Below are positions 1,818 to 42,229 of a stretch of DNA of 64,000 nt, in pieces; position 1 is the stretch's first letter; the number at the start of each line of letters is the position of its first letter. The translations under genes and the position numbers were made by a program. Location: positions 1,368 through 65,367 of the IMG/VR virus record IMGVR_UViG_3300021090_000019, one strand, 5' to 3'. The notes beneath the pieces are model-generated. The model saw nothing but the letters and a program-made list of their open reading frames with translations, was not told where the DNA came from and searched no databases. Source of the DNA: a virus. Lineage: Duplodnaviria > Caudoviricetes.

Positions 1818-3395
1818 TTATGTCCAACCGGCGATAGAGGCTGGCGCGCTGTCCACCTGAGACGTTTGTCTCTTTGTGAAGAAGTTGCCTGTTCTCCCGG
1901 TAGCCTTCATGGCAGCATATTGTAAGGCGTCATGCGGGTGTGAGGCATCATTCTTTTCAGGCCGATCTTGGAATCGATCCTGTCCTGTGACCTGGATCCT
2001 CTTCATCCGGTACTCCCCAAGAAATCCCTTATGAAGCAACTTACAGCGGGGGTTGAGCTGCAAGGCTCCCTTGTTCCCCTCGATCCTCTGGACGAGAAGA
2101 CCATCGACGGCCCCGTATCTGGGATCCCAGGCGTTGGACCAGGCGGCATCGCCATGCTGGCCGAAAGCGTCTTTGATCTCCATGAAGGCGTTGCGCTCGT
2201 CGGAGTTATAGGATTTTCTAACTCCAGATGGATCGCCGGTGATGATGAGAGGGATTCCGTAATACTTGGCGTTGATATATGGCTTGATCACGTCCTTGAG
2301 AAAACGGCGGCTTCCCATTCCCTTCCCAAGAAATTCATCGTAGATGTGAAACCTACTGTTCGGATGTATTTGGGCCATGACACAGGCTGGATGGCTGTCG
2401 AAGTCAAATCCCAGAATGAGGGGGTAAGACCTTTTGGGATCTTCATCCTTTTCGGCAAGGTGAAAGGTATCTGACCAATTCGGGTAAACCGGGCGCCCAT
2501 CGCGAACGTAGCCGTATTTCCCATCGACATAGACGGTGATCCATGCCGGGTCTTTCCCATGCATGAGCCGGGAATAATAACCTGGATCCAGATTCGGGAG
2601 GTTTTCAGCTTCGGCGGATCTGCCGGACGGCTGTTTATAAATTGCGGTCAACGGGACGCCCTCAGCCTCAGTCTTGTTGCAGTTCGGGCAGAACTGCGGG
2701 AGGGCCCAATTCTTGGCTTCCATCCGGATCATCGTCACGGGACCGCCGTCTTTGTTCACGCAAACAGGGCAGGCCCTGGGTTTATCTTCTTCGAAAAGTT
2801 CATAGAACCAGTGATCGGTGTCGCATGGGTTCGTTTCCCCAAAGATGCCCTTCCACGTACATCCCCCATCCTGCCTTGCAGGGAATCGACCGACACGGCC
2901 CTGCATGGTATCCCAGATTATCCTGGGGATTTCACGGACCTCGTTAAACCATGCCCCGGTAAGTTCCAGGGAGAGGAGGTTTGCAACGTCATCGGGTTTG
3001 TCGAGCGGGCGGAAGAGGATTTCTGCTTCGACCGGAGACCCATCGGGGGCCTTCAGTTTGTTGAGGATAAAGTTTCTGGGGGTCTTTTCGTAGGTTCCAA
3101 ATTGGGCCATCCAATAGAGGAAGGTCCGGAGGGTCGTATCGTCGAGTTCCCTGTTCGTGTTCCGAATGACTGCCCACCGCGATCGCCTAACGCCGTCTCT
3201 GCCGGGCATCTGTTGGGCAGCCCTCCTGGGGATCTCCATGACCGCACCAGAGGACTTCCCGGACCCAAAAGGCCCCATGAGCCCACGGATTTGGGTATTG
3301 TCCAAAGCAAAACGCCCAATCGTGGGAATGTGGGTATAGTCATATTTGACGGCATATCCGGGACGGACATGACCTGAAGCACGTGGACGCGGCAT
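1818..3395 (-). CDS. terL: Terminase large subunit
   Basis: Walker A GPFGSGKS, Walker B-like AWFNE, coupling motif ETNP, nuclease GFDF and HPHDALQY. Confidence 0.95.
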   Translation of the reverse strand: MPRPRASGHVRPGYAVKYDYTHIPTIGRFALDNTQIRGLMGPFGSGKSSGAVMEIPRRAAQQMPGRDGVRRSRWAVIRNTNRELDDTTLRTFLYWMAQFGTYEKTPRNFILNKLKAPDGSPVEAEILFRPLDKPDDVANLLSLELTGAWFNEVREIPRIIWDTMQGRVGRFPARQDGGCTWKGIFGETNPCDTDHWFYELFEEDKPRACPVCVNKDGGPVTMIRMEAKNWALPQFCPNCNKTEAEGVPLTAIYKQPSGRSAEAENLPNLDPGYYSRLMHGKDPAWITVYVDGKYGYVRDGRPVYPNWSDTFHLAEKDEDPKRSYPLILGFDFDSHPACVMAQIHPNSRFHIYDEFLGKGMGSRRFLKDVIKPYINAKYYGIPLIITGDPSGVRKSYNSDERNAFMEIKDAFGQHGDAAWSNAWDPRYGAVDGLLVQRIEGNKGALQLNPRCKLLHKGFLGEYRMKRIQVTGQDRFQDRPEKNDASHPHDALQYAAMKATGRTGNFFTKRQTSQVDSAPASIAGWT

Positions 3396-4025: not shown

Positions 4026-4361
4026 TCATTTACCCCGATCAAATATCCCCTGTGCTGCGAGCCAAAGAGGACTCCTTTGCAGATCCGGCACCGGTATTGG
4101 AACGGATGACGCTTCAGGGGAAGCTTCACAAATCGGTGGGGAAGCTGGCAACTGCCTAACCTTTTCAGGTTCTTTCGGTGGTCCTGTATGATCTTCTCGA
4201 AGGCGCTCCACCCTGTCTTGGTACTGCCGGTTGATTTCTCTTTCGATCTCAGCATAGACGCTCCCGCAATAAAGACAAGAAACCTCCGCCGGGAACCGGC
4301 TAAAGGGCTTAATGATCCTCAACGGAGATCCGCACTTCTTACATTTTGGCCACTGGTCCAA
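4026..4361 (-). CDS. Zinc-ribbon protein
   Basis: CKKC...CLYC; overlaps upstream gene end. Confidence 0.5.
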   Translation of the reverse strand: MDQWPKCKKCGSPLRIIKPFSRFPAEVSCLYCGSVYAEIEREINRQYQDRVERLREDHTGPPKEPEKVRQLPASPPICEASPEASSVPIPVPDLQRSPLWLAAQGIFDRGK

Positions 4362-5109
4362 CTTTTTCCCTCACCGCATCCTCGATCGATTTCATCGGGA
4401 GTGTCTGCATCGCGTTGTCCGAACCCAAGCCCACGATGATCAGAGCCGGGCCCTCAACGCTGATTCCGGCGGGGGGCGCCCGTGGGGGTTCTTCACCTTC
4501 ACCCATCTGCAATGCTCCCGGAATTCCCCTGAAATCGACCAGTTCGTTGATCGCGCCCACAAGATCCTTCAGATCCCGGGGTGACTTGAAGCTGACCCCA
4601 AAGTTTTTAAGCCCGTCCTTCAGGGCTTCAAGCTCGGACTTCTCTTCCGCGTCCAACTCCCGTTTCTCTTTCCTGTGGATCTCAATGATCTCGGTCATCC
4701 GCTTTAGCCAGGTCATAATCGTGCCGACGACTTCAATCCCATCCTTCCGGAAGAGGCCAACTTTCCCCATGACCTCCACAATCCCAAGCCGTTTCGCGTT
4801 CTGAAGATCCTCAGCGATCCTTTCTTTCCATTTCCCGGCCTGTGCCCATGTCTGGACTGTGGTCAGGGAGACATCGAGCCAACTGGCAACGGCTTGATAC
4901 GTTCTCGTCCTGCCAAGAGACCGGTACTTCTCGAAGGCGATCTCATGCCTCTCGGTGACGGTTTTAGGGAACTTTTTGATGGTATTTGGAGAAAGCTTCT
5001 TTCCGTCGCCTCGAGGCACACCTTTCCTGACGATGGCCGAGGGGGGTTCTGCAGCATCGCTACCCTGAACGGTGGGATCCGGAAGGATCAGGTCTTCGAC
5101 TGGGATCAC
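4339..5109 (-). CDS. HTH protein, probable terminase small subunit
   Basis: AFEKYRSLGRTRTYQAVASWLDVSLTTVQTWAQAGKWKERI HTH, helical body, position upstream of terL; start uncertain. Confidence 0.6.
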   Translation of the reverse strand: MIPVEDLILPDPTVQGSDAAEPPSAIVRKGVPRGDGKKLSPNTIKKFPKTVTERHEIAFEKYRSLGRTRTYQAVASWLDVSLTTVQTWAQAGKWKERIAEDLQNAKRLGIVEVMGKVGLFRKDGIEVVGTIMTWLKRMTEIIEIHRKEKRELDAEEKSELEALKDGLKNFGVSFKSPRDLKDLVGAINELVDFRGIPGALQMGEGEEPPRAPPAGISVEGPALIIVGLGSDNAMQTLPMKSIEDAVREKVGPVAKM

Positions 5110-5393
5110 TTCTTCACCTTCGGAAACTTCATGATGATATTTTTGACCGGAAACCGCTCTTTGGCCTTCCGGCAAAGCTTGATGAACTGACGTTCTTCGA
5201 AATTCGGCGCCCCGATCGTCAAGTTGAACTCCTGGAGACGAGGCTTCGACCTGTCCCGCTTCTTGTAGGTCCGCTTCGTCATCTTCACGGTAAGACTTGG
5301 GCTCAGGAAGGCCGTAGCTTTCACGGCACTCTCAATCTGGATGGCTGAGAACAGCCTGTTGAGAAGGTCGGGCTTGATTGCTGATAAATCCAT
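5106..5393 (-). CDS. Hypothetical basic protein
   Basis: SD AAGGAG; compact operon packing. Confidence 0.6.
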   Translation of the reverse strand: MDLSAIKPDLLNRLFSAIQIESAVKATAFLSPSLTVKMTKRTYKKRDRSKPRLQEFNLTIGAPNFEERQFIKLCRKAKERFPVKNIIMKFPKVKK

Positions 5394-7546: not shown

Positions 7547-7891
7547 TTACGATTGCCCTTCCTTTAGTTTGTCCATCCCGCCCATCGATCTTACCCTCTG
7601 ACGCATAGTCCCCAAGGGGATCCCAAGACTTTTGGCGGTAAGAGTTTGATTCCAGGCATTCTCGGCAAGGGCCTTCACGATATCATCTTTGGTCGTGTGC
7701 TTATACCTAAGATTACCGTGTAGCTTATGCTCTATCTGCCGCTTGTTGTTCGAGTTGTCCTGGGTCGGACTGTGCATCGTGATCGTCCCGATGGAGATAA
7801 CATTGATCGTTACTCCATCGGGATTGGAGCCAAGTACCTGCCTCAGTATTTGGGCCGCGATCTGAGGTTCCTGCGTGATTTTTGTGTCCAT
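7547..7891 (-). CDS. Stand-alone Fis-type (HTH_8) DNA-binding protein
   Basis: C-terminal IVKALAENAWNQTLTAKSLGIPLGTMRQRV matches the Fis/bEBP HTH; no AAA+ domain. Confidence 0.8.
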   Translation of the reverse strand: MDTKITQEPQIAAQILRQVLGSNPDGVTINVISIGTITMHSPTQDNSNNKRQIEHKLHGNLRYKHTTKDDIVKALAENAWNQTLTAKSLGIPLGTMRQRVRSMGGMDKLKEGQS

Positions 7892-8784: not shown

Positions 8785-9069
8785 TTAGGATACGCCGCCG
8801 GGGTTGATTTTTGGCATATCTGAAGCCCCATACACTCGCGGTCCTTTCCTTATGTCCTCGATCATCTTCGCGAGCAGAGTGGTCTGGGCCTGTAACGACT
8901 GCATCGCCCTGAATATGATATCGAGCTGGAGCGCGGACAGAATCCGAGCAAGCCTTTCCGGGTCCATTCCCTCCACCTGCATATCGACCTTCCCCTTTTC
9001 GTCGATCATGATCACGGCCGCCAGCGGGCCGAACGAGGGCTTCTTCTCCAGCGGTTCCTTCAACGGCAT
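8785..9069 (-). CDS. Hypothetical protein
   Basis: SD AGGAGG. Confidence 0.6.
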   Translation of the reverse strand: MPLKEPLEKKPSFGPLAAVIMIDEKGKVDMQVEGMDPERLARILSALQLDIIFRAMQSLQAQTTLLAKMIEDIRKGPRVYGASDMPKINPGGVS

Positions 9070-9102
9070 AAATCCTCCTGAGTGAATTGGAATAACGAAG
9101 AG

Positions 9103-9501
9103 TCATCGGGTTTTCCTCCGGGGACGAAAAACGTAGTCAAAGGTTTCCGGCGACTTGGAAACTTCAAGGCCGTATTCCAAACAGAGAGATCTGACGAAAT
9201 CATAGTTGCCCGCCGGTTTGCACCCGTCTACAAGGGCGAAAGCCGAAACCTGTGCGTAACCCCATCGATCGACAGAAACTAAAATGTCATCCACTACCTT
9301 GTTGCCGGTGCAGTATAGAACGCGACACTCAGCGAGAACTGTGACCCTATGATCGCGGGGGAGAGAGGACAAACTTCTCGTAATCTCAATCGGGTCTTTG
9401 CCAAGAAAAATGGAGGGGTCCTGCGAGCCTTCATCGATCCAAGATTTATGATTACGCCCAAGAGGTCCCGCTTCAGTGCTAAAAATGGAAGCCATCTCCA
9501 C
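9103..9501 (-). CDS. Hypothetical protein
   Basis: First ORF after the minus-strand promoter; SD-like GAGGGGTGGAG. Confidence 0.45.
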   Translation of the reverse strand: MEMASIFSTEAGPLGRNHKSWIDEGSQDPSIFLGKDPIEITRSLSSLPRDHRVTVLAECRVLYCTGNKVVDDILVSVDRWGYAQVSAFALVDGCKPAGNYDFVRSLCLEYGLEVSKSPETFDYVFRPRRKTR

Positions 9502-9719
9502 CCCTCAAAAAGTAGGAAAAAAAAATATAAAAAACGGGGATCGAAAAAAGCCAAATAATAGGAAGTCGGGAATTCGTCGATGCGAAGGAGAGTGTCTTGG
9601 GAGCGGCGGACCATGGACGCGCGGGGGTACGTGACGACTGGTGGGGGTGGTCGCGACACGCGCCCGCCTGCCCGCACAACACGTTGCCACTCTTTTTTCT
9701 CTTCCGTTCCATCACGGAC

Positions 9720-9748
9720 CTTCTATCACACGCGAAAGAGGATGTCAA
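9720..9748 (-). promoter_or_regulatory. Sigma-70-type promoter
   Basis: TTGACA-17-TAGAAG on the minus strand. Confidence 0.55.
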
Positions 9749-9767
9749 GGGCTTTCTCTCCACCCGT

Positions 9768-9795
9768 AGTTTACATAATGCATATTATCAGACGT
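9768..9795 (-). other. dif-like XerC/XerD recombination site
   Basis: ACGTCTGATAA-TATGCA-TTATGTAAACT; 11-6-11 layout; XerD arm identical to that of B. subtilis dif. Confidence 0.8.
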
Positions 9796-10295
9796 ATTCT
9801 CCCCAATACGTTGCCTTATCCCTCCCCTGGCGCTCGCTTTCCCCTGGCTGAAGCTCGGATTTCCCCGGTGTCGATTGCCCGCCCTCCCCCTCCCCATTCC
9901 CTAAGCTATCGACATCACATAACAACCTGCAACACGTTCCTGTTCTTTCTCTTTCTTTCCCCTGTTTTTTTCCTCTTTGCGCTTTATTGGGTCGCTGGTC
10001 TCGGGTTTAGACCTGGCTCAGTCATCCCCAGTTGGACTCTGTTGAGACTTCCTGAGATATACATTCCCTTGCTACTCCTTCAACTATCCCCGTACCCATA
10101 GGCACCCTTTTCCCCCCCTACCCCCCCTTTTCCCTTATTCCCTCTCCCCTTCCCTTCACAGATACGTTCTCTTTCGATGCGTTATTCCCTCCCGGGGGAC
10201 CGGGGTTCTTGGGGCCTCCGCCGCTGCCGGGCTGGAGGAGTCCGCCGGGACCGGGATCGACCTGGCCGCGCGGGACCGGGGACCGGGGCCGACTC

Positions 10296-10340
10296 TGACT
10301 TTTTTTCATGACCTTTTTTCAAAAGTCTGACCTTTTTTCA
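10296..10340. repeat. Three 13-bp TGA-N7-TCA boxes (candidate activator sites)
   Basis: TGACTTTTTTTCA 10296, TGACCTTTTTTCA 10309 and 10328. Confidence 0.7.
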
Positions 10341-10405
10341 GAGCGAAATCATTGAGTATTTGACGCGGCTTTCCGGAAACATTTAGCCTTTTGTCCGCAG
10401 TTGAT

Positions 10406-10422
10406 TTGGCACAGAGTTTGCT
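10406..10422 (+). promoter_or_regulatory. Sigma-54 (-24/-12) promoter
   Basis: TTGGCACAGAGTTTGCT with GG-N10-GC spacing; intergenic, heads the plus-strand early cluster. Confidence 0.7.
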
Positions 10423-10636
10423 CTTAAGAGGGTGACTTTTGAAGTTGAAAGGGGTTCTGGAAATGAGACTTTTGATGGTAGGACAAACTGAGAAGCTTTC
10501 TCCGGAACATGAGACCGAAGTCAAGGCGAATTGCGCTCGACCTTTAGGGTGCAACGAGCAACCGGCTTCCTGGGACAGTGGTCCGCTGCCGGTTCAATCC
10601 ACTTGGGGACTATTCAACATGAAAGGGGTGAAATTC

Positions 10637-10825
10637 ATGGCTACAAAAAGGAGTGAACCTGAAAGCTTGACGCTCCCTGGCATGGCTAAAAGATCTATGC
10701 CGCCGACTCGAAAGACGGTCGGGATGCTTTGGGACGAGACCCCGCTGGCGAAGGCCGCGCGGCAGGCCGAAATCGACCGAGTCCAACCGGGACTTTTTGA
10801 GAAGAAAGAAGGGGAGATATCATGA
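10637..10825 (+). CDS. Small early protein with QPGLF motif
   Basis: SD AAAGGGGTG before MATKRS. Confidence 0.6.
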   Translation: MATKRSEPESLTLPGMAKRSMPPTRKTVGMLWDETPLAKAARQAEIDRVQPGLFEKKEGEIS

Positions 10826-10938
10826 GTCTTTTCGATATCGTTAGTCCACTTCTTTTCGGAGTTTTCTGGTTTGTAGGCGTCTTGCTCGGGTTGAGAGATA
10901 AACCAAAACCACGATTGAAGGGGGGTGAAAATGACTAA
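10822..10938 (+). CDS. Small membrane protein
   Basis: MSLFDIVSPLLFGVFWFVGVLLGL; SD and ATGA overlap. Confidence 0.5.
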   Translation: MSLFDIVSPLLFGVFWFVGVLLGLRDKPKPRLKGGEND

Positions 10939-11095
10939 AGCTATGCTTCTCGAAAATGCCGGGATTGAGGGTTTCCGAATCGCTGCCGATTTGGTGCCCT
11001 CCGTTCATTTAGCGCCGGTTCTTTCTATCCTGAGCTGGCAAACATGGGTTAATTCGCTGCCTGTCTACAAGACAGGGAAAGGGGACAAAGAATGA
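10931..11095 (+). CDS. Small hypothetical protein
   Basis: SD GGGGGTGA; overlaps the next start. Confidence 0.5.
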   Translation: MTKAMLLENAGIEGFRIAADLVPSVHLAPVLSILSWQTWVNSLPVYKTGKGDKE

Positions 11096-12105
11096 AACCG
11101 TCAGTCTTATCTGAAACACTACGGATTGCGATCCGGAACAAAGACCCGTTGTTGATTGTTGGCCCTCCTGGGATAGGTAAAACAGACCTCACGTTTCAGG
11201 CCGCGCAGGCCGAAGGTGCAGACCTTATCGTGAGTCACCCCGTTGTCAGTGATCCGACGGATTATAAGGGAATGCCTTGGGTTATCACCCTACCGGACGG
11301 AACACAGAAAGCGACGTTCCTTCCCTTCAGTGACCTGGAAGAGTTGATCAAGGCGACGAGGCCGACCGTTTTTCTCCTTGATGATCTTGGACAGGCCGCG
11401 CCCTCAGTTCAAGCGCCAGCTATGCAGTTGATTTTAGGCCGTAGGATTAACGGCCACAAAGTTTCTGACGAAGTCGTTTTCATTGCATGTACGAACCGCC
11501 GTCAAGACATGGCCGGGGTGACTGGCATTCTCGAACCCGTCAAGAGCCGGTTCATTTCAATCATAAACCTGGAGGCGGACCTTGACGATTGGTGCAAGTG
11601 GGCACTTGCTTCAAACACTGTCGCTTTCGAAGTCATCTCTTTCCTCCGGTGGAAGCCCGCGCTACTTTGCGACTTCAAACCGACGAAGGAAATGAAAAAT
11701 TCACCCTGCCCACGGACCTGGAATGCAGTCAGTAAGATCGTCCAACATAGCTACCCGAAAGAGGCAGAGGCAGAAATGATCATGGGCGCGGTCGGGGAGG
11801 GGGCCGGGGTCGAGTTTATGGCATTCCTCAAAATCGCGCGTGAATTACCATCTCCGGATTATGTCATCATGCATCCGGACGAGGCCGACGTTCCCAAGTC
11901 ACCGTCAACTCTGTACGCGCTTTGCGGCGCTCTTTCCGCACGTGCCGGGGACAACACCTTTGGGAACATTGTTAGATTTGCAAACAGACTGCCAGCGGAA
12001 TTCTCCGTCATGATGATCGTCGATAGCACGACGAAAAACAGAAATCTGGTCAAGACGAAAGCTTATATTGACTGGAGTCTCAAACATACTGATGTCTTGA
12101 TTTAG
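11092..12105 (+). CDS. MoxR-like AAA+ ATPase
   Basis: GPPGIGKT, FLLDD, ACTN, SRF, PCPRTW. Confidence 0.9.
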   Translation: MKPSVLSETLRIAIRNKDPLLIVGPPGIGKTDLTFQAAQAEGADLIVSHPVVSDPTDYKGMPWVITLPDGTQKATFLPFSDLEELIKATRPTVFLLDDLGQAAPSVQAPAMQLILGRRINGHKVSDEVVFIACTNRRQDMAGVTGILEPVKSRFISIINLEADLDDWCKWALASNTVAFEVISFLRWKPALLCDFKPTKEMKNSPCPRTWNAVSKIVQHSYPKEAEAEMIMGAVGEGAGVEFMAFLKIARELPSPDYVIMHPDEADVPKSPSTLYALCGALSARAGDNTFGNIVRFANRLPAEFSVMMIVDSTTKNRNLVKTKAYIDWSLKHTDVLI

Positions 12106-12194
12106 CGGGAATAGGCAGAGGGTGAGGCATCTCGAAACGGGGTGCCGATCCCCCTGGCTACTGCCGGGAAAATCTGAAAGGAAAGGAGACAAAC

Positions 12195-13049
12195 ATGGGA
12201 GAGAAGAAATTGAACGAACGAGCGCTGCTGCTTCGATTGTCAATTGGACAGTGGACCGCTCGAAAGCAGGACAAGAAAATCAAGGCAGAGGTAGAGCAGC
12301 AATACAACGCGACGGACGCAATTAGCGTTCACAAGGCGCTCATTGCGAAAAGCGCCCTGGAAACTATTTCCAAAAAGGTCACACAGGTTAGAGATTATGT
12401 TTACACTCACACCCTGCCCTGGGTAGACGAGGGAGTGCGATTGGTGCCCGCCGTTGACATTCTTTCTTTGTCTCAAACGCTCCGCGAAGAGAAGCAGGAA
12501 TGCGAAAAATTGTTTGAAGAATTTGTAGCGAACTACCCCGCCATGATCGAGACCGCGCGCGCGAGTCTGAACGGACTTTTCAACGAGGCCGACTATCCCA
12601 ACCCGGCCAAGGTAGCGCGAAAGTTCTATATGGAATTCACGTTCGAACCCATTCCGGAAAGCGCGGGGTTTGTTAGCCTGCAAGGTTTCATACAGAACGA
12701 GCTCGACGATATGTCTCAGAACTACGAAGACCGGGTTAGAACCGCGACGGCAGCGGCCATGAAGGATCTTTACATGAGACTCCACAAGGTCATTTCCGCC
12801 GCTCATGAAAGGCTGATAGATCCGGATAACAAGTTCAAGGATTCCCTGGTTTCAAACATTGTCGAACTGGTCAACCTACTACCGAGACTGAACGTGACCG
12901 GAGATGAAGAGCTTGAAAGACTCCGCCGCGAGGCCGAAGAGAAGTTGACGAAGTACGACGCGCAATCGCTCAGAGATTATCCGATGATGCGAAAAGAAGT
13001 GGCCGACGGGGCTGCTGACCTCCTGAAGAAAATGGAAGGCTACGTTTAA
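12195..13049 (+). CDS. DUF3150-like protein
   Basis: W.ARK.D, HTLPW.D.G.RL.P, LFNEADYP, LNVTGD; sits between AAA and vWA genes. Confidence 0.7.
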   Translation: MGEKKLNERALLLRLSIGQWTARKQDKKIKAEVEQQYNATDAISVHKALIAKSALETISKKVTQVRDYVYTHTLPWVDEGVRLVPAVDILSLSQTLREEKQECEKLFEEFVANYPAMIETARASLNGLFNEADYPNPAKVARKFYMEFTFEPIPESAGFVSLQGFIQNELDDMSQNYEDRVRTATAAAMKDLYMRLHKVISAAHERLIDPDNKFKDSLVSNIVELVNLLPRLNVTGDEELERLRREAEEKLTKYDAQSLRDYPMMRKEVADGAADLLKKMEGYV

Positions 13050-13102
13050 GAAATTCGAAATTCAAAGGCCGGGGCCGCGAGACCCCGGCGGAAAGGAATC
13101 AA

Positions 13103-14395
13103 ATGAAGACCTCAGATCTAAGCGCGAAAAAGAAGATTGAGAAAGCGCGGGCAGGGCTGGTGATGGATCAACCTTTTTGGGCATCAATCTGTCTACGCCT
13201 GGAGATGATCGAAGACAAGGCCGGGGGCTTGACTGAGACCATGGCCACGGACGGAAAGTCGATCTATTATTATCCTCCGTTTGTTGACGCGCTTTCGCTC
13301 GACGAAGTCAAGGGTGTCCTGGCTCACGAAGTCGGCCACGTTATCCTGCTTCACCCCTATCGTCGCGGAAACCGAGACCTATCAGATTTCAATCAGGCCG
13401 GGGATTATGCAGTCAACCCGATTCTGAAGGAGGCCGGTTTCAAGCTGCCTGAAGGGAGCCTTGACGAGCAGGCCTTTCACGGAAAAGAAGTCGAAAGTAT
13501 TTATACCATCATCCACAATCTTCCGAAGAAACCGCAGGGACAAGGCGGACAGGGACCGGGTGGACTGAAGGGACAAGGTACCGGCGCGGACGGATCTCAA
13601 CCCGATAAACCTGGCGGTGGCGGATCTCAACCCGGTAAACCGGACAAGGCAGGGCCAAAAAAGCCTGGGCCGAAATGTCCAGATCCTGGAGGGACCGGGG
13701 GGGTGATGGACTACCCCGGGACGCCTGCCGAAACAAAGCAGGCCATGGAAGAGCAGAAGATATCAAACATTCAGGCCGCGCAAGTTGCGAAAAAACAAGG
13801 TCGCCTGCCGGGGTCGCTTGACAGATTGATTGAAGACCTGAACGAGCCAACCGTTGATTGGCGGGAAGTCTTAGCACAATTCGTTGACAGCTATTCCAAG
13901 AACGACTACACCTGGTCGAAACCGAACCGGAGATTTCTGGGGTCTGGAATGTTCATGCCGTCGCTGCAATCTCCAAGTCTGGGGCACGTAGTCGTCTTGA
14001 TAGATGCATCCGGTTCTGTTTCCGAAGTCGAGCTAAGGGGCCTGGTTTCCGAGGCTTCCGGAATAACCGAGATGTACGAGGGAGTTGAGCTTTCCGTGAT
14101 CTTCTTCGACACGCGAACGTCAGATATCCTTCAGATTACCGACGAGACAGACCTGAAGAAATTGAAAATCCCTAAGATGAGCGGCGGAACGGATTATAAG
14201 CCTGGATTCAAGGCTATCGACAAAAACGGTTTGACTCCAGTTTGTGTCGTGGTTCTGACCGATGGGGAGTGTTCGAGTTTTCCAAAAGACCGGGGAGTGC
14301 CTACGCTTTGGGTGATCAACGACACCGAGACCGCGAAACGCTTTAAACCTCCGTTTGGTGACGTGCTGGCCATGCCTGGAAACGAGACGGACTGA
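13103..14395 (+). CDS. DUF2201-type metallopeptidase plus vWA protein
   Basis: TMATDG, HEVGH, MIDAS DASGS, GGTD, LTDG. Confidence 0.9.
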   Translation: MKTSDLSAKKKIEKARAGLVMDQPFWASICLRLEMIEDKAGGLTETMATDGKSIYYYPPFVDALSLDEVKGVLAHEVGHVILLHPYRRGNRDLSDFNQAGDYAVNPILKEAGFKLPEGSLDEQAFHGKEVESIYTIIHNLPKKPQGQGGQGPGGLKGQGTGADGSQPDKPGGGGSQPGKPDKAGPKKPGPKCPDPGGTGGVMDYPGTPAETKQAMEEQKISNIQAAQVAKKQGRLPGSLDRLIEDLNEPTVDWREVLAQFVDSYSKNDYTWSKPNRRFLGSGMFMPSLQSPSLGHVVVLIDASGSVSEVELRGLVSEASGITEMYEGVELSVIFFDTRTSDILQITDETDLKKLKIPKMSGGTDYKPGFKAIDKNGLTPVCVVVLTDGECSSFPKDRGVPTLWVINDTETAKRFKPPFGDVLAMPGNETD

Positions 14396-20554: not shown

Positions 20555-21028
20555 CTATTCCGCTGGTTCGACTTCGATCTCCACCCCCGGCGTTACCCCG
20601 TAGCACTTAAGAATTCTCACGTCAACCAACTGACTATCATCAACCCAAAGGACTTTTGTCAGCGCATCTTCCGTAGGCCGGGCCAGCTTTATGTGGTCCG
20701 GCTTTGTTGTCTTCCAAAAGGGCGCACCTGCCTTAAGGGTATTCTTGTTCTTGCCTGTCCCGTAGTGTCCCTTAATATGGGAGAACGTGAACGTCATCCG
20801 AACACGGAGGGGGCCTGGGAGAAGGGGACCGTGGTAGGTGTCGCGGCAGGCGTCAGCCACCCGGGACTTCCATCCTTTAGCCTTTGGGTTCGAATCAGAG
20901 ACAACGGTTGCCACAACCTCCTGAAGCTGCCCTTTATTCCCCCGCTTAAAGTTCCCAGTGTGTATGGCAAAGGCCCTTTTCGATCCTCCTGACTGCGGTT
21001 CTCCTGGCACAAAGAATCGTACTGTCAT
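20555..21028 (-). CDS. rusA: RusA-family Holliday junction resolvase
   Basis: F.VPG.P, KPD..KL.R..EDAL....W.DDSQ.V. Confidence 0.9.
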   Translation of the reverse strand: MTVRFFVPGEPQSGGSKRAFAIHTGNFKRGNKGQLQEVVATVVSDSNPKAKGWKSRVADACRDTYHGPLLPGPLRVRMTFTFSHIKGHYGTGKNKNTLKAGAPFWKTTKPDHIKLARPTEDALTKVLWVDDSQLVDVRILKCYGVTPGVEIEVEPAE

Positions 21029-21333
21029 TTTTCGTGTGTCCCTTCGACAGCCCTGGCCTTCCGGTCAGCCGTCCGTCTCTCCAGCCACATCAACGCTTCT
21101 TCGAGTTTGGTGATGGCAAGGCTATTCTCGCGGCAACGAAACTTCCCATCCATCCACTTCTCGTTCAAATAACTCAGCCGATGGATAAGCACCCGGAGAA
21201 CCTCCTCATTGGTCACGCCATCTATTCTGTCACCGTCCTCTCTCATCTCATAGAACCGGATCGTTCTTAGCGTATCGCGGTCTTTCATGAATGTTTCCAT
21301 TTCGTAAAAGTGGCAATCGTCAAGACACTTCAT
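21025..21333 (-). CDS. tad1: Tad1-like anti-defence nucleotide sponge
   Basis: GVTNEEVL..LIHRL...F.CRENSLAITKLEEALMWLERRTADR.AR.V.GT; SD AGGAGG before ATG 21333. Confidence 0.75.
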   Translation of the reverse strand: MKCLDDCHFYEMETFMKDRDTLRTIRFYEMREDGDRIDGVTNEEVLRVLIHRLSYLNEKWMDGKFRCRENSLAITKLEEALMWLERRTADRKARAVEGTHEK

Positions 21334-21580
21334 CTTTTTTCTCCTCCTTTTCTGTGGGATTAAGACCTGGCGTTTTAAGCTGCCCGAAGGGAACCAAAAT
21401 TCCTCTCGGGTTTTTTTTGTCCTGAAGTAACCGATTCTCCGCACAGTATGTTGTGAGTCGAAGCCAAAGAGATCTTTCTTTCCGGCAGTCTTTCTTCTCC
21501 GTCTTTGCCTTCTCATATTGCTGGTGAACCAGGTCAATCAGCTCGCTCCAATCATTTTTTCTTAATATCGCCACCCGCAA
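21320..21580 (-). CDS. Hypothetical protein
   Basis: SD AAGGAGG; fills the operon. Confidence 0.5.
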   Translation of the reverse strand: MRVAILRKNDWSELIDLVHQQYEKAKTEKKDCRKERSLWLRLTTYCAENRLLQDKKNPRGILVPFGQLKTPGLNPTEKEEKKDEVS

Positions 21581-22040
21581 CCTCCTTTCCTATAAGCCTC
21601 TGCGCCTGTTTTTTTAAGAACTCTCTCTGGGCTTCCCTCTTCTTCATCGTCTCAAGATCTTCTATCGTCGGCCTTATGGCAGCACCGTTCCCAATCTTTT
21701 GCACATCCGGAATCCTCTCGTAGATAAGCTTGATTGCGGCTTTCTGTTTTTCTATTGGGACCCGTTCCTCCTTGATGTACGGAATTTGCATAGACCTCTC
21801 TGACGCTCTTTCTTTTTCTTCCTCAATGAATTTTATAATCTCGGAAATCTGTGGGAAGAATTTGATCTCCTTACGGGCCCTTTCAAATACAATCTCGATT
21901 AACTCAATTGGGTAGACATGAAGATCCTCGAAATAAATAACACCCCTTTCTTGGGTGAGTTCGTAATCTTTTGCTATCAATAACTTCTTCATGGATGCGC
22001 TGTATCGTGCCCAATATTCTTTTGCACCGACCTCATTCAT
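21552..22040 (-). CDS. Replication-associated protein (helicase loader-like)
   Basis: YFEDL...KFFPQISEI; follows the initiator. Confidence 0.55.
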   Translation of the reverse strand: MNEVGAKEYWARYSASMKKLLIAKDYELTQERGVIYFEDLHVYPIELIEIVFERARKEIKFFPQISEIIKFIEEEKERASERSMQIPYIKEERVPIEKQKAAIKLIYERIPDVQKIGNGAAIRPTIEDLETMKKREAQREFLKKQAQRLIGKEVAGGDIKKK

Positions 22041-22870
22041 TTCAACTCCTTCGGCTTAATTCTTGAAAAGCTCTCTTGGACTTTCCTATCCAACTCCCTC
22101 ATCCCCCTTGTGGGGTCTTTCTTTGATTTCTCTGGACTGATCATCTCTGCCTGGAGACGATTGAATTTTAACCGGAGGGTGTTGCCTGAGAGGATATTCT
22201 TTCTCCAAAAGGAGTCCGACTGGCACCACTTGATCACCTGTTCTATGTCTTTCTCCTCCCGTCCATCAAGTCGCATCATCTCGTCAATAGGCTTAGACCA
22301 TCCAGAGATTCTCTCCGGAGGCTTGAATTTTGGGAACCATACCTTTATTCTTTCAAGAAGTAGATGTGCCAACCGTTGGGCTTCCGGTGTACTTAGACAC
22401 TTCACTTCACTTCCCTTCACTTCTTCTTCACTTAACTTCTTCTTCACTTCACTTGCGCACCCTTCTGACACTAACTCCGGTGACAATCCGGTGTTGATCT
22501 GGTGTTCTGTTAGTAAGGCAAGGATTTTACTCGGTTTTTTTCTGATCCCATGAAAGGTTTGCCGTTGGAACCATACCGGATCTTGAAGAAAGACCTCGTT
22601 ATCGACGATATAGAGATTCCAAAGGGGGATGTCCCCATCGTCGGAGGCTATAATTTCCTCGATCAACCCCGGGATTTCTTCCTGGGTAACGTCGTCTCGC
22701 TTAGGAAAGACGGTCCCCTTGAGGATTCTTGGGTCTCCATCCTGGAACCCGTAGTCATCAAAATAGGCAATTGCCCAAGTGTAAAGTAAGGCTGCCTTCA
22801 GAGACAGGCGATTCACTTTTTTGCTTGTAGAAATGCTCCCCCATAAAGATCTCCTGTCCCTGACGGCCAT
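22037..22870 (-). CDS. Phage replication initiator / replisome organizer
   Basis: S.KVN.LS..A.LLYTW...DD.G N-terminus; D.FW..NILS...LR..F C-terminus. Confidence 0.8.
   Translation of the reverse strand: MAVRDRRSLWGSISTSKKVNRLSLKAALLYTWAIAYFDDYGFQDGDPRILKGTVFPKRDDVTQEEIPGLIEEIIASDDGDIPLWNLYIVDNEVFLQDPVWFQRQTFHGIRKKPSKILALLTEHQINTGLSPELVSEGCASEVKKKLSEEEVKGSEVKCLSTPEAQRLAHLLLERIKVWFPKFKPPERISGWSKPIDEMMRLDGREEKDIEQVIKWCQSDSFWRKNILSGNTLRLKFNRLQAEMISPEKSKKDPTRGMRELDRKVQESFSRIKPKELK
22398..22505. repeat. Short repeats inside the initiator gene (candidate origin)
   Basis: Tandem CTTCA units and three (C/T)CGGTG-like units. Confidence 0.45.
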
Positions 22871-26031: not shown

Positions 26032-26262
26032 TTGAAGACCGAAGGGCACATCAGCTACGAGCCGGAAGAAATCCAAAGATATAAGAAAGAAATCGATTCG
26101 ATGACTCAAGTCGAAATGGCGAGGCGGTACCGGTATTCGAAAGTGGGGGACGCGCTCTTTACCAGTCATGGATGTCTTTACGATTATTTCATGGCCCGGT
26201 TTAAGTCCTTGGGCGGGATGACTCCGGAGATATCTAAACAGATAGGGTGGGGAGACGACTGA
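26032..26262 (+). CDS. Hypothetical protein
   Basis: GGMTPEISKQIGW C-terminus. Confidence 0.6.
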   Translation: MKTEGHISYEPEEIQRYKKEIDSMTQVEMARRYRYSKVGDALFTSHGCLYDYFMARFKSLGGMTPEISKQIGWGDD

Positions 26263-26849
26263 TGCCGGTAGAAGGACACGCGATATACGCCCCCCGGGGA
26301 CGCCGACTTTACTCTGTGACGGAAGTTCTGGGATGTTATTTCCAGGAGTTTATGGAGAAGTCCAGGGTCGCATCTTTCATCATCGAACATGCGGCTGCAA
26401 AGGGGACGCTGGTTCATCAATGGTGCGTGGCCTACGCGATGGGCCTCTTCGTTCCTGACCTTCCCGGGGAGTACCAGGGATATTGCCGCAGCTTCGCCGC
26501 CTGGTTCGACACCTACGTCGATAAGGTCATTTTCATGGAGGAACGGCTGCACGATTATGACCTGGGTTTCTATGGGCATCCGGATCTTCTTTGCCGGGTG
26601 AGGCATCACGATTTCGATAGCCTCTTCGACCTGAAGACACCCATTGCCCACAGCGTATTGTGGGGTCTCCAGTTGTCAGCATATTACCACCTTCTGAAAA
26701 AGAATGGATACAACCCTGCGTGGGCAGGCTCCCTCCAACTCGATCCGGACGGAGGATCCCCGAGGGTTACGAAGCACGTCTACGCCGAAAGAGATCTGGC
26801 TGTATTCCTTTCGGGGCTTACGATAAGGAGGTACGTCGATGCCGCTTAA
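26262..26849 (+). CDS. PD-(D/E)XK exonuclease (recombination)
   Basis: SVTEVL, GT.VH, E, G.PD, DLKT, QL.AY. Confidence 0.85.
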   Translation: MPVEGHAIYAPRGRRLYSVTEVLGCYFQEFMEKSRVASFIIEHAAAKGTLVHQWCVAYAMGLFVPDLPGEYQGYCRSFAAWFDTYVDKVIFMEERLHDYDLGFYGHPDLLCRVRHHDFDSLFDLKTPIAHSVLWGLQLSAYYHLLKKNGYNPAWAGSLQLDPDGGSPRVTKHVYAERDLAVFLSGLTIRRYVDAA

Positions 26850-33465: not shown

Positions 33466-33757
33466 GGACCAACCTCCTCAACCTTCCTGATTCTTCCGCT
33501 GCAACGGATTGTGCAGCCTTCACCTTCTGAAGCTCCCCGGTCAGCCTATTAATTTCAGCCTCGTATATCTCCTCATTCTCCTCCAACACCTCGATGACAC
33601 GCGACTGGTCATGCCGAAGGTTGTCCAGGGCCATGTTGTAGAGCTTCCGCGTGGCTGCCCATCCGGAGACACTCTGCCACAAGAAGAGGACGGCGATCGC
33701 AGCCCCCACCCACCCCCACCAGGGGATCTTTTTAGCCAGCGTTAGAAATGTATTCAT
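33332..33757 (-). CDS. i-spanin-like protein
   Basis: N-terminal TM plus coiled coil, after the endolysin. Confidence 0.6.
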   Translation of the reverse strand: MNTFLTLAKKIPWWGWVGAAIAVLFLWQSVSGWAATRKLYNMALDNLRHDQSRVIEVLEENEEIYEAEINRLTGELQKVKAAQSVAAEESGRLRRLVREKDAEIDALKKEYANIVIPTDPNALADDFRKRGYKPRTMLPPR

Positions 33758-34301
33758 GAATGCCTCTTGCGATGAGGGCTCCTATCTTCCGGAGCGTCAG
33801 CTCATCTGAAAATGTTTCGGACGACGAAGACTTGTCGATAAACCCAATTTCAATGAGGCAGGCGGGCGCGTTGGTTTCCCTGAGCACATAGAAGTTGCCC
33901 GCCTTGATGCCACGGAAAGGCTCGTCCGGGAAGATCCGGTCCACTTCATCAGCCAGGCACTGAGACAGCCTCAGCCCCTCCACGCTTCCCTGGTAGTACC
34001 AGATCTCTTCTCCCCTTGCTTCCGGGTCCCCTTCGAGATCCGGATCGGCGTCGGCGTTCGCGTGTATGCTCACGAAGCAGTCGGCCCCATCATTGTTCGA
34101 GATGTTACACCGCTCTTGGAGTGAAGCTGTCCGGTCGTAATTCCTTGTAAGGACGACACGGATCTCTGGGGCGACGATTTTCAACCCTTCGGCGACGTAC
34201 CTTGCCACTTCGAGCGTCACATTCTTTTCTTCCATGTCCTTGAAGCAGGCTCCCGGCTGGCTGCCGCCGTGGCCCGGGTCGAGGCAGACTCTTTTTTTCA
34301 A
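33732..34301 (-). CDS. Endolysin, N-acetylmuramoyl-L-alanine amidase (Amidase_3)
   Basis: LDPGHGG, EK, SIHAN, PACLIEIGF. Confidence 0.95.
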   Translation of the reverse strand: MKKRVCLDPGHGGSQPGACFKDMEEKNVTLEVARYVAEGLKIVAPEIRVVLTRNYDRTASLQERCNISNNDGADCFVSIHANADADPDLEGDPEARGEEIWYYQGSVEGLRLSQCLADEVDRIFPDEPFRGIKAGNFYVLRETNAPACLIEIGFIDKSSSSETFSDELTLRKIGALIARGIHEYISNAG

Positions 34302-41800: not shown

Positions 41801-42229
41801 GAGCGGATCTCGGGTATTAACAAATCGAACGGTATCGGCATCCCCGGCAACCGCCATGTTGTAGGTGACGCCCTCGTCAATCCTGGTCTGATAGTCTACC
41901 CTCTTTTTCTCCGCCGCCGCCCTGGCTTCCTCTTTTGTCTTCTTACCGGGGGCCTGCATCAAGGCCGGTTCTCCTGGTCCCCCTTCTCCCTGAGTAACCG
42001 CTACTGGAGCCTTCTCCACGATTTCATACTTGCCGGTAAAGGGCTTTGTGGAAACCTTCAGATCCCCCCTTGCGACAGCACGTTGTAGGATGGATTCCGC
42101 TTCCTTAGCCGTGACCCTGATATTGTTCGTAGCCAGCGTACGTCTCGCCAGGTCCATCGATGCCATGCCGGAAGCCCTGGCCGACTCCATCACCATGTCG
42201 GCCAGCTCGTCCATGGAGTGACCCGCCAT
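35834..42229 (-). CDS. Large polyvalent virion/ejection protein (ParB-like, zincin, ART-like domains)
   Basis: DPDRFQYK...YAVNGHNR; HEAFH; LYHGT...GWGLYFTD...GIDGIKY...NYVVFD; helical C-terminus. Confidence 0.85.
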   Translation of the reverse strand: MAGHSMDELADMVMESARASGMASMDLARRTLATNNIRVTAKEAESILQRAVARGDLKVSTKPFTGKYEIVEKAPVAVTQGEGGPGEPALMQAPGKKTKEEARAAAEKKRVDYQTRIDEGVTYNMAVAGDADTVRFVNTRDPLRQAIVSKNTYPDQDPWRITWLDDRGPSGHETFKTRDDAIRSISGERVGNEAPYGAAGDWKAVQAMTPIKQAAVQTEPKPNEVADNFPIDKIELDPDRFQYKLENREATGATGSLKGARVFDKALFGVISVWKDPADGKWYAVNGHNRTVFARDMGVRNIPVYHIDAPTAATARVHGALQNIAEGQGTVIDAAKFFRDSSYSEEDLKDKGISFTKGLQRDAMALANLAEWIFKGVINKTFPYERAVVIGGGIKDQDLQNEVIRAVEAKEKRGIKITNDVLREIVDQVNAAPVKEMAQTDLFGTTTTKKSLIFEKAAIQAHIAKELAKDKKIFGMVARNAEELARVPGQEIKAEASREISQDANKMLAVFDALKRSKGPISDIITKGAERLSEGEDAKKVKTEVYNQIREALPGAISTREEPGSGGTPSLFGGPSDQRLSVERREAGPRTKETGVKPVEGQATPDQLKEIVNHILKILPAKSGVDFKPQLDFDVNDPKNQAALKYWFGPAPTGANPEEFYRMELQGRSVGGRQKLYRLRSGSVISMIEVATQGKTPGAVGRTAYHEAFHTVWEIFLSNEERAMLADKFPSAGGMDTTEIQSNAFADWAMKKRNALPLSVKGIFNRIRNFFESLRNYLTGLGFDNAESIFGRAYKGSLAGQVSMQELDKRLSRVAPLPGDRAQIGPLYHGTALEFPQFSSEAINRGAGSQAFGWGLYFTDQENIARWYAENQGNAKFQEAVGNIGEQATSPAGRRAIVQGWIDRLLAGQARTEYEYHPAGMNDPSIVKFKSTWGAEKEAEYDRIFAKMGTDPWKVTREERETLDRLGAIRPNPNGYKFYTGSEFEYGMRDLNRYIYEQGPFPVWLMNQPYNFSKEDVPKAFEGVPEKPTRIVKKVTLHQGKTPEQYDYLTWDDTVTNRQREKVADALVKRQGMQAEFDVWKKLMVDLRGGRVPEGWKFEKNPNNHLGRQYEIYDESGQMAGSGVTLKDSLLDSVKYGNLMIRRIDVKDYDLGGLLATLMDPDVLPGGQYLYDALETRFGKEADTDHPGVQRKIGSKEASLFLLRNAGIDGIKYPSGTIHGKDEGGFNYVVFDDQAINPEGETRFAVQMSDFESDDPAVEKEMREAKGFDTQPKFDKLSQTYLKLKQSFTEHFPRLADNSKFGMTKDILRRAESVPEKAIAWAQARLEEILKPLDKAEYWGFSKMVILPDIIRDAESGLMDLATEKPFGYTDLSQVQRDYAKVTANASPRMMDAFDRRQNIMKQLVDRSVDLKLLNESAKEDDRYYHHQVMQYMNLKYYGPRVSSEDLRTHQKGYMIARKGSGLAYNTEYLQAEFEVLAQMQSQIMTKESLNEIEKNDDVSGQVKAEALRQGYSDWRDALKHFPEYRLWQPKKGNVFFNTFSLTDKVVDRVLNQGQPLTWDDLRVVLAVGQKRTQWVIPDELAQTLDNFRDFKPEGIILRGADAIQTSWKQWILFNPLRVMKYWINNLSGDLDIVIAYNHRIIFDRYMKPSQYLTSSIKDLWSDFRGRATPVQKAMLEDAMKSDVIGSGMTIKEIPDINEAGIFKALVGANPGVVQRYWGGVKEFNNFRENILRLASYRYFQDQIASGKTPYGASRREEIDAITDSTLKAAKLARELVGDYGNISESGQWLRKHMIPFYSWIEINAPRYVRLLKNIKHEGGGAAGLRIGAAATARAGVGLGIRATMLYTLVNLWNGVFFPDEDDEMQRAQRNQLHLILGRRDDGSVISIRFQGALSDALNWFGMEDFPQDFKDVVSGKVPWSKKFDEALKAPMQKLFSGARPIEKGAVEALTGKTLYPEMFKPRAIRDPWEHLAKSISMDVPYRYAHYAAGKAGILPAAKPIRGLLTPLLNTIAYTSEPGESAYYSTIEKISNFLKTEGYEVPDVSPTRRSNALYYYKQAKRFDDEATAKQWLDEYTRLGGKREDIRNSMKKSHPVAFIPIKLRRKYMGSIDAEDRRTMDIAVDWWEKTFKK

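Follow-up and report, generated by a model that had tools for sequence, protein, structure and literature searches.

Analysis of a 64,000-bp stretch of DNA (the window), which comprises bases 1368-65367 of the 65,367-bp IMG/VR record IMGVR_UViG_3300021090_000019, revealed a 28-bp site of the dif type in the genome of a tailed phage (Caudoviricetes) in which no gene for a tyrosine or serine recombinase was detected. The record is 99% complete as estimated by CheckV. Judging by its sequence, the site is probably acted upon by the host's recombinases XerC and XerD. Tentatively, we favour the reading that these enzymes recombine it with another copy of itself, for cyclisation of the phage genome or for multimer interconversion. 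The site and its immediate setting are organised as follows:

9768-9795, minus strand: dif-type Xer site of 28 bp, matching the dif of the Bacillota metagenome-assembled genome (MAG) G001 at 27 of 28 positions
9785-9795, minus strand: XerC-type arm, ACGTCTGATAA
9779-9784, minus strand: 6-bp centre, TATGCA
9768-9778, minus strand: XerD-type arm, TTATGTAAACT
9496-10462, no strand: non-coding gap of about 960 bp that contains the site and separates the divergent leftward packaging/late and rightward early operons

The minus-strand sequence ACGTCTGATAA-TATGCA-TTATGTAAACT at 9768-9795 has the composition of a dif-type core site, namely two 11-bp arms, a 6-bp centre and the inner ATAA / TTAT symmetry. 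It occurs once in the window with up to three mismatches allowed, and none of 100 shuffled sequences contained a match. The looser core ATAA-N6-TTATGTNAA has a single exact copy and two matches with at most one mismatch, against a mean of 0.10 in shuffled sequences. With a weight matrix built from bacterial sites, the site scored 46.7 bits, compared with 2.0 for the next best position in the window and maxima of 1.1-10.9 in 20 shuffles, although the matrix is partly circular because its bacterial sites were found with the phage's own core. The surrounding gap contains no convincing open reading frames (ORFs); the leftward operon starts at 9495 and the rightward early operon at 10463. A separate metagenome contig of 2,880 bp spans the site at 99.93% identity, and Logan pieces of two further sequencing runs (X4 and X6), 151 nt each and both covering 9728-9878, cross it without a difference. 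Since an independent contig and these pieces bridge the site, the arrangement is real and a quirk of assembly is ruled out.

The 21-base core of the site, consisting of the inner part of the XerC arm, the centre and the XerD arm, was found at 24 loci in a collection of bacteria with one genome per species, against about 0.3 expected, a figure estimated from the size of the collection. The core is common to several phyla, including Longimicrobium and other Gemmatimonadota, Sphingomonadaceae, Myxococcota, Bacillota and others, and at the 24 loci the outer XerC arm varies by lineage. The best match over the full length (27/28) is a single-copy site in the 1.8-Mb Bacillota MAG G001, at a locus of 49% G+C; its centre, TATGCA, is identical, and the only difference is that the phage has T instead of C at position 6 of the XerC arm. 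The next best (26/28) are sites of the Sphingomonas and the Polyangia/Bradymonadia types, at loci with 63-68% G+C. When G001 was taken together with 60 relatives, 13 of the 61 genomes were found to contain the core with at most two mismatches, all with the arm ACGTCCGATAA or GCGTCCGATAA. In a sample of 401 genomes from the class to which G001 belongs, 71 matched the arms within two mismatches, their centre being mostly TATATA. The G001 genome encodes XerD, which at 376.5 bits exceeds the curated cut-off, as well as another recombinase of the Xer type with 318.5 bits; in Bacillus the Xer pair is represented by CodV and RipX.

Similarity between the phage gap and the bacterial dif loci ends at the edges of the 28 bp, and the site is therefore not a piece of captured host DNA. 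On sequence grounds, the 28-mer is a true dif-type Xer site of the host type, set in phage-specific DNA. The match to dif, a DnaD-like replication protein and the ribosome-binding sites, with a strong AAGGAGG or AAGGGGG before nearly all genes, together make a host among the Bacillota rather likely. The nearest cultured relatives of the phage by its large terminase subunit (TerL; 30-38% identity) are mostly phages named as short-tailed; since the nearest cultured relatives by TerL or ATPase reach no more than 38% identity over most of the protein, they indicate no host.

Six-frame searches of the whole 65,367-bp record found neither PF00589 nor PF00239 at E<=1. The same searches did not detect DUF3653 (the XafT-like family), HTH_3, ParB_N, CbiA/ParA or Peptidase_S24; ParM and TubZ were not searched for. 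When about 80 ORFs were scanned with Pfam and PHROGs, the only match suggestive of a repressor or partition protein was a Fis-type HTH_8 domain (7547-7891). A first-pass annotation of this DNA had described a dif-like 28-mer with phage genes to either side, remarked that no integrase was visible, and suggested that the site may identify the host. These observations hold up: the site is unique in the window and of true dif type, with its core at 24 bacterial loci, the absence of an integrase extends to the whole record, and the near-identity to the G001 site points to a Bacillota lineage.

The site is not an isolated case among viruses. The arms ACGTCYGATAA-N6-TTATGTWAACT were identified in 46 other IMG/VR contigs, against an estimated expectation of about 0.03. 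The records of 44 of these contigs could be searched for marker genes, and 45 distinct viral contexts were compared with 28 bacterial ones. The site is single in all 44 searchable records except G459, its location is mostly internal, and direct terminal repeats are present in five records. The exceptional G459 record, which has direct terminal repeats, contains two inverted Xer-type sites (26179-26206, minus strand, and 26554-26581, plus strand), 375 bp apart and with different centres. PF00589 is absent from 43 of the 44 records, including all eight that are at least 90% complete, the exception being the provirus G461; PF00239 is likewise absent from 43 of 44. No CbiA/ParA match above the cut-off was obtained in any of 45 records (the 44 and this phage). 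Peptidase_S24 was found neither in the 44 nor in this phage, and its only match among 46 records searched was in G478, a relative added to the set.

The viral and bacterial sites differ in two respects. Position 6 of the XerC arm is T in 28 and C in 17 of the 45 viral contexts, and the 28 bacterial contexts have C there without exception. Among the 45 viral contexts there are 41 different hexamers as centres; 26 of the 28 bacterial centres are TATATA (18), TATACA (5) or TATGCA (3), and one of the two outliers is itself a viral record. According to a list of chromosomal centre types that was picked by eye from the 401 genomes (TATATA, TATACA, TATGCA, TAGATA, TGTATA, TTTATA, GATATA, GATACA and a few others), about 6 of the 45 viral contexts have a centre of chromosomal type and 39 do not. 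Positions 5-6 of the viral centres are biased to [CT]A, as in chromosomal dif. A centre free to vary fits a site that needs to match only its own copy. The window phage combines the viral form of the arm (T) with one of the few centres of chromosomal type.

One lineage is represented by nine loci (L078, L092, L096, L099, L102, L105, L109, L115 and L116) from eight distinct phages, two of the loci being identical. Their TerL proteins are 50-73% identical, and in all nine the site occupies the same place, 150-860 bp upstream of a small terS-like gene that precedes terL. All 22 arm bases are kept save one two-fold position, the centres are of seven different kinds, and the flanks, compared by eye and unaligned, differ throughout. 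The comparison is direct evidence of purifying selection on both arms in tailed phages, with the centre left free to vary. In several members of this lineage a GAGGGGG-like run stands just before the XerC arm. At four other viral loci (L076, L080, L085 and L108), whose centres differ, a GATATYATTAC-like motif occurs within 15 nt directly upstream of the XerC arm.

The position of the sites relative to the packaging genes is also recurrent. In the window phage the site heads the operon that contains the genes of both terminase subunits and runs from 9495 through some twelve small genes to terS and terL:

4339-5175, minus strand: small terminase subunit, terS (phrog_6299, E 5.3e-10), in the operon that starts beside the site
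1818-3395, minus strand: large terminase subunit, terL (phrog_2, E 1.2e-22)

A TerL-like gene lies within 3.5 kb of the site in 26 of the 46 viral loci (16 of the F1 family, nine of the F3 family and one homologue of the TerL of this phage), and at 23 of these 26 the terminase genes point away from the site. Assuming a 40-kb genome, chance alone would place a TerL gene that close to the site at about one locus in six. The assignment of the two families rests on matches of a member of each to PHROG terminases (2.8e-42 for F1 and 7e-10 for F3). The F1 profile matches solved large terminases at E 3.8e-41 and does not match the TerL of this phage, which makes F1 a different clade of TerL.

Sites of the viral type, with non-chromosomal centres, also occur in chromosomes, within elements that encode their own integrase. 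In G255 such a site and the chromosomal dif share a contig (C27) but are 1.27 Mb apart, and an integrase gene is found 13 kb from the site; in G333 (contig C9) the site adjoins homologues of the TerL of locus L103, with an integrase gene at 11 kb. As both are located in elements with an integrase of their own, far from dif, they cannot be attachment sites there. Two other genomes have more than one Xer-type site. The 198-kb record G436, viral according to IMG/VR, is at the same time a contig of a bacterial assembly (G035:C7) and has an Xer-type site of its own at 88845-88872 with the centre GAAAGC, while a chromosomal-type dif with the centre TATATA is present elsewhere in that assembly (G035:C35:553-580); G436 is thus a replicon apart, whose site is private. 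In the G301 genome, four contigs each have an Xer-type site (C1:526672, C3:1445, C7:2298 and C14:4867), with arms of the ACTT type and an unusual centre; one of the sites is 1.5 kb from a gene for a tyrosine recombinase of 377 amino acids.

Five viral records with TerL 35-48% identical to that of the window phage were compared as structural relatives. Two of them, G479 and G480, encode a tyrosine integrase and have no dif-like site. In G478 (locus L150; TerL 44% and portal 41% identical; record 65% complete) no integrase is found, and a dif-like site in which the XerD arm is perfect and the XerC arm has three mismatches (1152-1179 of the locus) lies 254 bp from a gene for an S24/CI-like repressor (140-898). 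The other two are fragments, 13-18% complete, with neither an integrase nor a dif-like site. In this small number of records, integrase and Xer site look like alternatives among relatives that share the structural module.

An integrated element was recognised in the complete provirus G448 of IMG/VR (43,486 bp, CheckV 100%), which encodes TerL, portal, tape measure and tail fibre proteins and has neither PF00589 nor PF00239. Direct sites at 804-831 and 42025-42052 (loci L134-L136), with a common XerC arm and the common centre TGTATG, bound an element of 41 kb; the right site matches dif perfectly, the left one with four mismatches in the XerD arm. This looks like the pattern expected for Xer-mediated insertion at dif from a phage attachment site (attP) with a poor XerD arm. 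An inverted partial copy of the XerC arm is present about 30 bp upstream of the left site. A dif together with a hybrid site flanking the integrated element, the arrangement that characterises integrative mobile elements exploiting Xer (IMEX), is found in G448 and not in the window phage, for which sampling is sparse. The broader proposal of the first-pass annotation, that tailed phages may exploit Xer for integration, is borne out by this provirus. In each of the two likely integrative cases, G448 and G478, one arm is degenerate.

For the window phage, the preferred reading is that it maintains a dif-type site instead of encoding a recombinase. The arm at 9785-9795 would be recognised by XerC and that at 9768-9778 by XerD, and strands would be exchanged across the 6-bp centre with a second copy of the phage site, provided by a sister genome, a multimer or a terminal repeat of the injected DNA. 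The outcome would be cyclisation of the genome or interconversion of monomers and multimers, as Cre achieves at loxP of P1 and as happens on plasmids at the sites cer, psi and pdif; exchange between molecules could also supply terminases with the multimers that they require. We infer the binding, the reaction, its partner and any need for an activator of the FtsK/SpoIIIE type, the partner by comparison with other phages. Across the family of viral sites, self-recombination is suggested by the intact arms and private centres, by the lack of the lysogeny and partition markers searched for, by the presence of such sites in elements that integrate by other means, and by their position at the start of the packaging genes.

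Several features of the phage weigh on the other side. No partition genes were found, and it is not obvious why a lytic phage should have to resolve dimers. The 65,367-bp record has no end repeats, and terS is 4.6 kb from the site rather than adjacent. The gene content (RecT, RusA and a replisome organiser working with the host replisome) is of a kind common in temperate phages, and the relatives of the structural module look temperate. The centre TATGCA is of chromosomal type and equals that of G001, as integration would require, and 21 of the 45 viral centres keep the chromosomal triplet beside the XerD arm, which pure self-recombination does not demand.

Because of this chromosomal-type centre, the main rival is that the site serves as an attP for integration by host XerC and XerD at dif, which would make the phage a tailed IMEX, perhaps a reversible prophage at the chromosome terminus. 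In the 27/28 match to chromosomal dif both the arms and the entire centre take part, the phage has no integrase, and its RecT, RusA, exonucleases and DnaD-like organiser make up a gene set often seen in temperate phages; among relatives by TerL, G479 and G480 have an integrase and no site while G478 has a site, close to its repressor gene, and no integrase, and G448 demonstrates the mechanism in tailed phages of hosts with this type of dif. However, no integrated form was detected. No phage homologue lies within about 4 kb of any of the 24 bacterial core loci. Other IMG/VR contigs lack the exact 28-mer, the metagenome contigs that contain it are all of the same phage and in the phage configuration, and the phage TerL was found in none of 64 genomes of the order of G001 (E<=1e-20) and in none of 401 of its class (E<=1e-40), samples in which many genomes are incomplete. 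Seven sequencing runs contain the phage site, six labelled as freshwater sediment and one as sediment; the Logan contigs of four sediment runs are all of low depth and show neither joints nor loose ends, too shallow to count for or against integration. The record has neither an HTH_3 nor an S24 repressor. In IMEX an asymmetry, either a degenerate arm or a centre matched on one side only, prevents FtsK-driven excision, and the ordinary reaction of dimer resolution should excise any prophage that has a complete dif on either side. No such asymmetry exists here, both arms being consensus and the centre identical to that of the G001 dif, unlike in G448 and G478 with their single degenerate arms. 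Integration of this phage is not supported, and we consider it less likely than self-recombination, though a serious rival to it. The first-pass annotation had left the choice between integration at the host dif and resolution of genome dimers; the former lacks an integrated copy, a junction or a prophage relative and is at odds with the intact arms, and the pattern of the 46 contigs, which favours self-recombination, is closer to the latter.

The remaining explanations are less probable still. The site might be bound by XerC and XerD without recombination, as a host-factor site for initiation of packaging near cos or pac, as a roadblock or unloading site for complexes of the SMC type, or as a decoy that titrates Xer. 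Conserved arms around a free centre are what binding alone would require, at 23 of the 26 loci where TerL is nearby the site is close to where the terminase operon begins, and all but three of the 44 records lack PF00589, PF00239, CbiA/ParA and Peptidase_S24 altogether. Yet the exact 6-bp spacing of both arms in every case would then be unneeded, and the [CT]A bias at centre positions 5-6 suggests that catalysis matters; we know of no phage that uses Xer proteins in such a way, although no search was aimed at this, and the explanation appears improbable. Scarcely better placed is the idea that the site is a relic of a past Xer exchange with a host chromosome, or of its use by an ancestor, with no present function. 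The restriction of the exact site to this phage and the 99.93%-identical contig would fit, as would the lack of all lysogeny markers searched for and of a dif-like site in the phages related by their ATPase (L002-L005, in records G062-G065; 33-55% identity), which also have no integrase and whose distance makes them of little help. A 28-mer under no selection would decay, however, whereas this one matches a living dif at 27 of 28 positions with a recurrent viral variant as its sole change, and in another lineage the same arms persist down to 50% TerL identity while the flanks, compared by eye, differ. A chance match or a chimeric assembly with bacterial DNA spliced in is close to excluded. The very large number of windows scanned initially makes a rare match to dif conceivable, but none of the 100 shuffles matched, and the lineage that was matched fits the phage in G+C content (0.53 vs 0.49 for the G001 locus), in the strong Shine-Dalgarno sequences and in the DnaD-like organiser; against a chimera, an independent contig and pieces of other runs bridge the site, and the flanks are phage-specific.

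Taken more broadly, and with still less assurance than self-recombination in this one phage, the data could mean that many tailed phages of Bacillota-type hosts delegate a Cre/lox-like task to host XerC and XerD through one site of the dif type, in most cases heading the packaging operon, whose fast-changing centre would confer private specificity. Sister lineages with a degenerate arm would then be true tailed IMEX, and the window phage would stand between the two types.

The gap that contains the site has further sequence features, and is bordered by two genes without an assigned family:

9677-9687, 9804-9814 and 9930-9940, plus strand: three operator-like repeats CAAYACGTTSC bracketing the site, spaced by 127 and 126 bp
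9820-10154, minus strand: G-rich polypurine tract on the side of the XerC arm, with five GGGNAGGG words all pointing to the site
10294-10340: tandem array of three TCTGACYTTTTTTCA repeats, closely followed by a promoter-like stretch of the TTGACG type and by the first early gene
9103-9495, minus strand: first gene of the leftward operon, 130 amino acids, no family
10463-10825, plus strand: first gene of the rightward early operon, 120 amino acids, no family

The partly palindromic CAAYACGTTSC has only these three exact copies in the window, and 11 matches with at most one mismatch against a shuffle mean of 2.57; the repeats are possibly the operators of a regulator or accessory sequences. Of the GGGNAGGG words in the whole window, 5 of 23 fall within the 335 bp of the tract, which is 64-77% purine on the minus strand and belongs to a purine-rich region of about 400 bp. 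Polar words guide translocases of the FtsK type toward dif, and the GGGNAGGG cluster resembles these. As a translocase-orienting signal of the whole family the cluster was discarded, not being common to other viral loci; a G-run beside the XerC arm is present in 10 of 44 contexts, largely from one lineage. The link between the tract and the site is uncertain. No Rfam family was identified in the gap at E<=1, and Rfam and tRNA scans of both the gap and the window were empty. Atlas look-ups of the two flanking proteins returned no usable match, only weak winged-helix look-alikes below the bar, and a blastn comparison of 9000-11000 with cultured phages gave no match. The contigs of runs X2 and X3 both end at 9739/9741, about 27 bp off the site. 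In run X6, a 31-nt record with a depth of 9.5 lies over 9767-9795 with two differences; it is possibly the bacterial dif of the same sample.

Elsewhere in the genome, the rightward early operon includes a MoxR-like ATPase (11092-12105), which forms with a DUF3150-like protein and a phrog_1314 protein a trio (11092-14395) kept in the four distant viral contigs L002-L005. The genes for replication and recombination encode the DnaD-like replisome organiser (22037-22870), RecT, two exonuclease-like proteins, RusA and an RNase H-like protein; two DNA methyltransferases are also encoded. The virion genes include one for a protein of 2,131 amino acids with a portal-associated domain, and an Amidase_3 endolysin is encoded at 33732-34301. 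The Fis-type HTH_8 domain mentioned above (E 5.2e-06) belongs to a protein of 114 amino acids (7547-7891, minus strand), a candidate for DNA bending or regulation, whose gene is part of the operon beginning at the site. Beside RusA and the replisome organiser, a protein is encoded in which an Acb2/Tad1 hairpin domain was recognised (E 4.8e-07; 21025-21537, minus strand); Acb2/Tad1 is a family of sponges for the signalling nucleotides of defence systems. The G+C content of the phage is 53%.

Filamentous and tailless phages, satellites, islands and plasmids have already been described as users of host XerCD. Full-text searches, which did not extend to subscription journals and supplementary files, turned up no tailed phage reported to have a dif-like site alone, without a recombinase. 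Should the site work as proposed, a tailed phage could no longer safely be called strictly lytic or non-recombining on the ground that it lacks an integrase, and the arms would offer a predictor of the host of uncultured phages from sequence alone, here pointing to Bacillota. The 46 sister contigs, with their conserved arms, free centres and link to the terminase operon, would likewise amount to a testable and apparently undescribed module, and there is a fair chance that the sister sites do define one. The provirus G448, a tailed phage without a recombinase at dif, extends the biology of IMEX to tailed phages.

Among known systems, chromosomal dif with XerC and XerD has the same 11-6-11 layout, and the phage arms are those of a living lineage. 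Chromosomal dif is located at the chromosome terminus, however, whereas the site described here lies inside a 65-kb phage genome and has T for C at position 6 of the XerC arm. The IMEX covered in the sources consulted are CTX-phi, VGJ-phi, TLC-phi, the dif-type double-jelly-roll phages and the gonococcal island, that is, filamentous or tailless phages, satellites and islands (PMC12715192; PMC9966536; PMC6744903; PMC9226527). The window phage resembles them as a mobile element without an integrase that has a dif-like site for host XerCD, and differs in being a 65-kb tailed phage with no integrated copy found, no degenerate arm and no XafT-like DUF3653. The tailed plasmid-prophages of Firmicutes, as far as the source portrays them, encode one or two Xer-like recombinases of their own together with ParM/ParA partition systems (PMC8026635). 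They are similar to this phage in being tailed and, according to the same account, in their presumed dependence on Xer-type recombination for genome maintenance (PMC8026635); in the phage described here there is only the site, with no tyrosine recombinase, ParA or ParB detected in searches that did not cover ParM and TubZ.

Plasmid Xer sites (cer, psi and the pdif of Acinetobacter) share with the phage a dif-like core on an extrachromosomal replicon that relies on host XerCD only. Their centres are of non-chromosomal types and pair only with their own copies, a property matched at the level of the viral family, whereas the centre of this phage is of chromosomal type. They differ further in that no partition or plasmid-type genes were found in the phage, and no recognised sites for accessory proteins, only the three operator-like repeats. 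In P1, a single loxP site near pac allows Cre to cyclise the terminally redundant DNA and to resolve dimers. The likeness to the present case is in the single site per genome near the start of packaging, the viral sites being clustered at the head of the terminase operon. The difference is in the enzyme: P1 encodes its own recombinase, and for the phage described here it would be that of the host.

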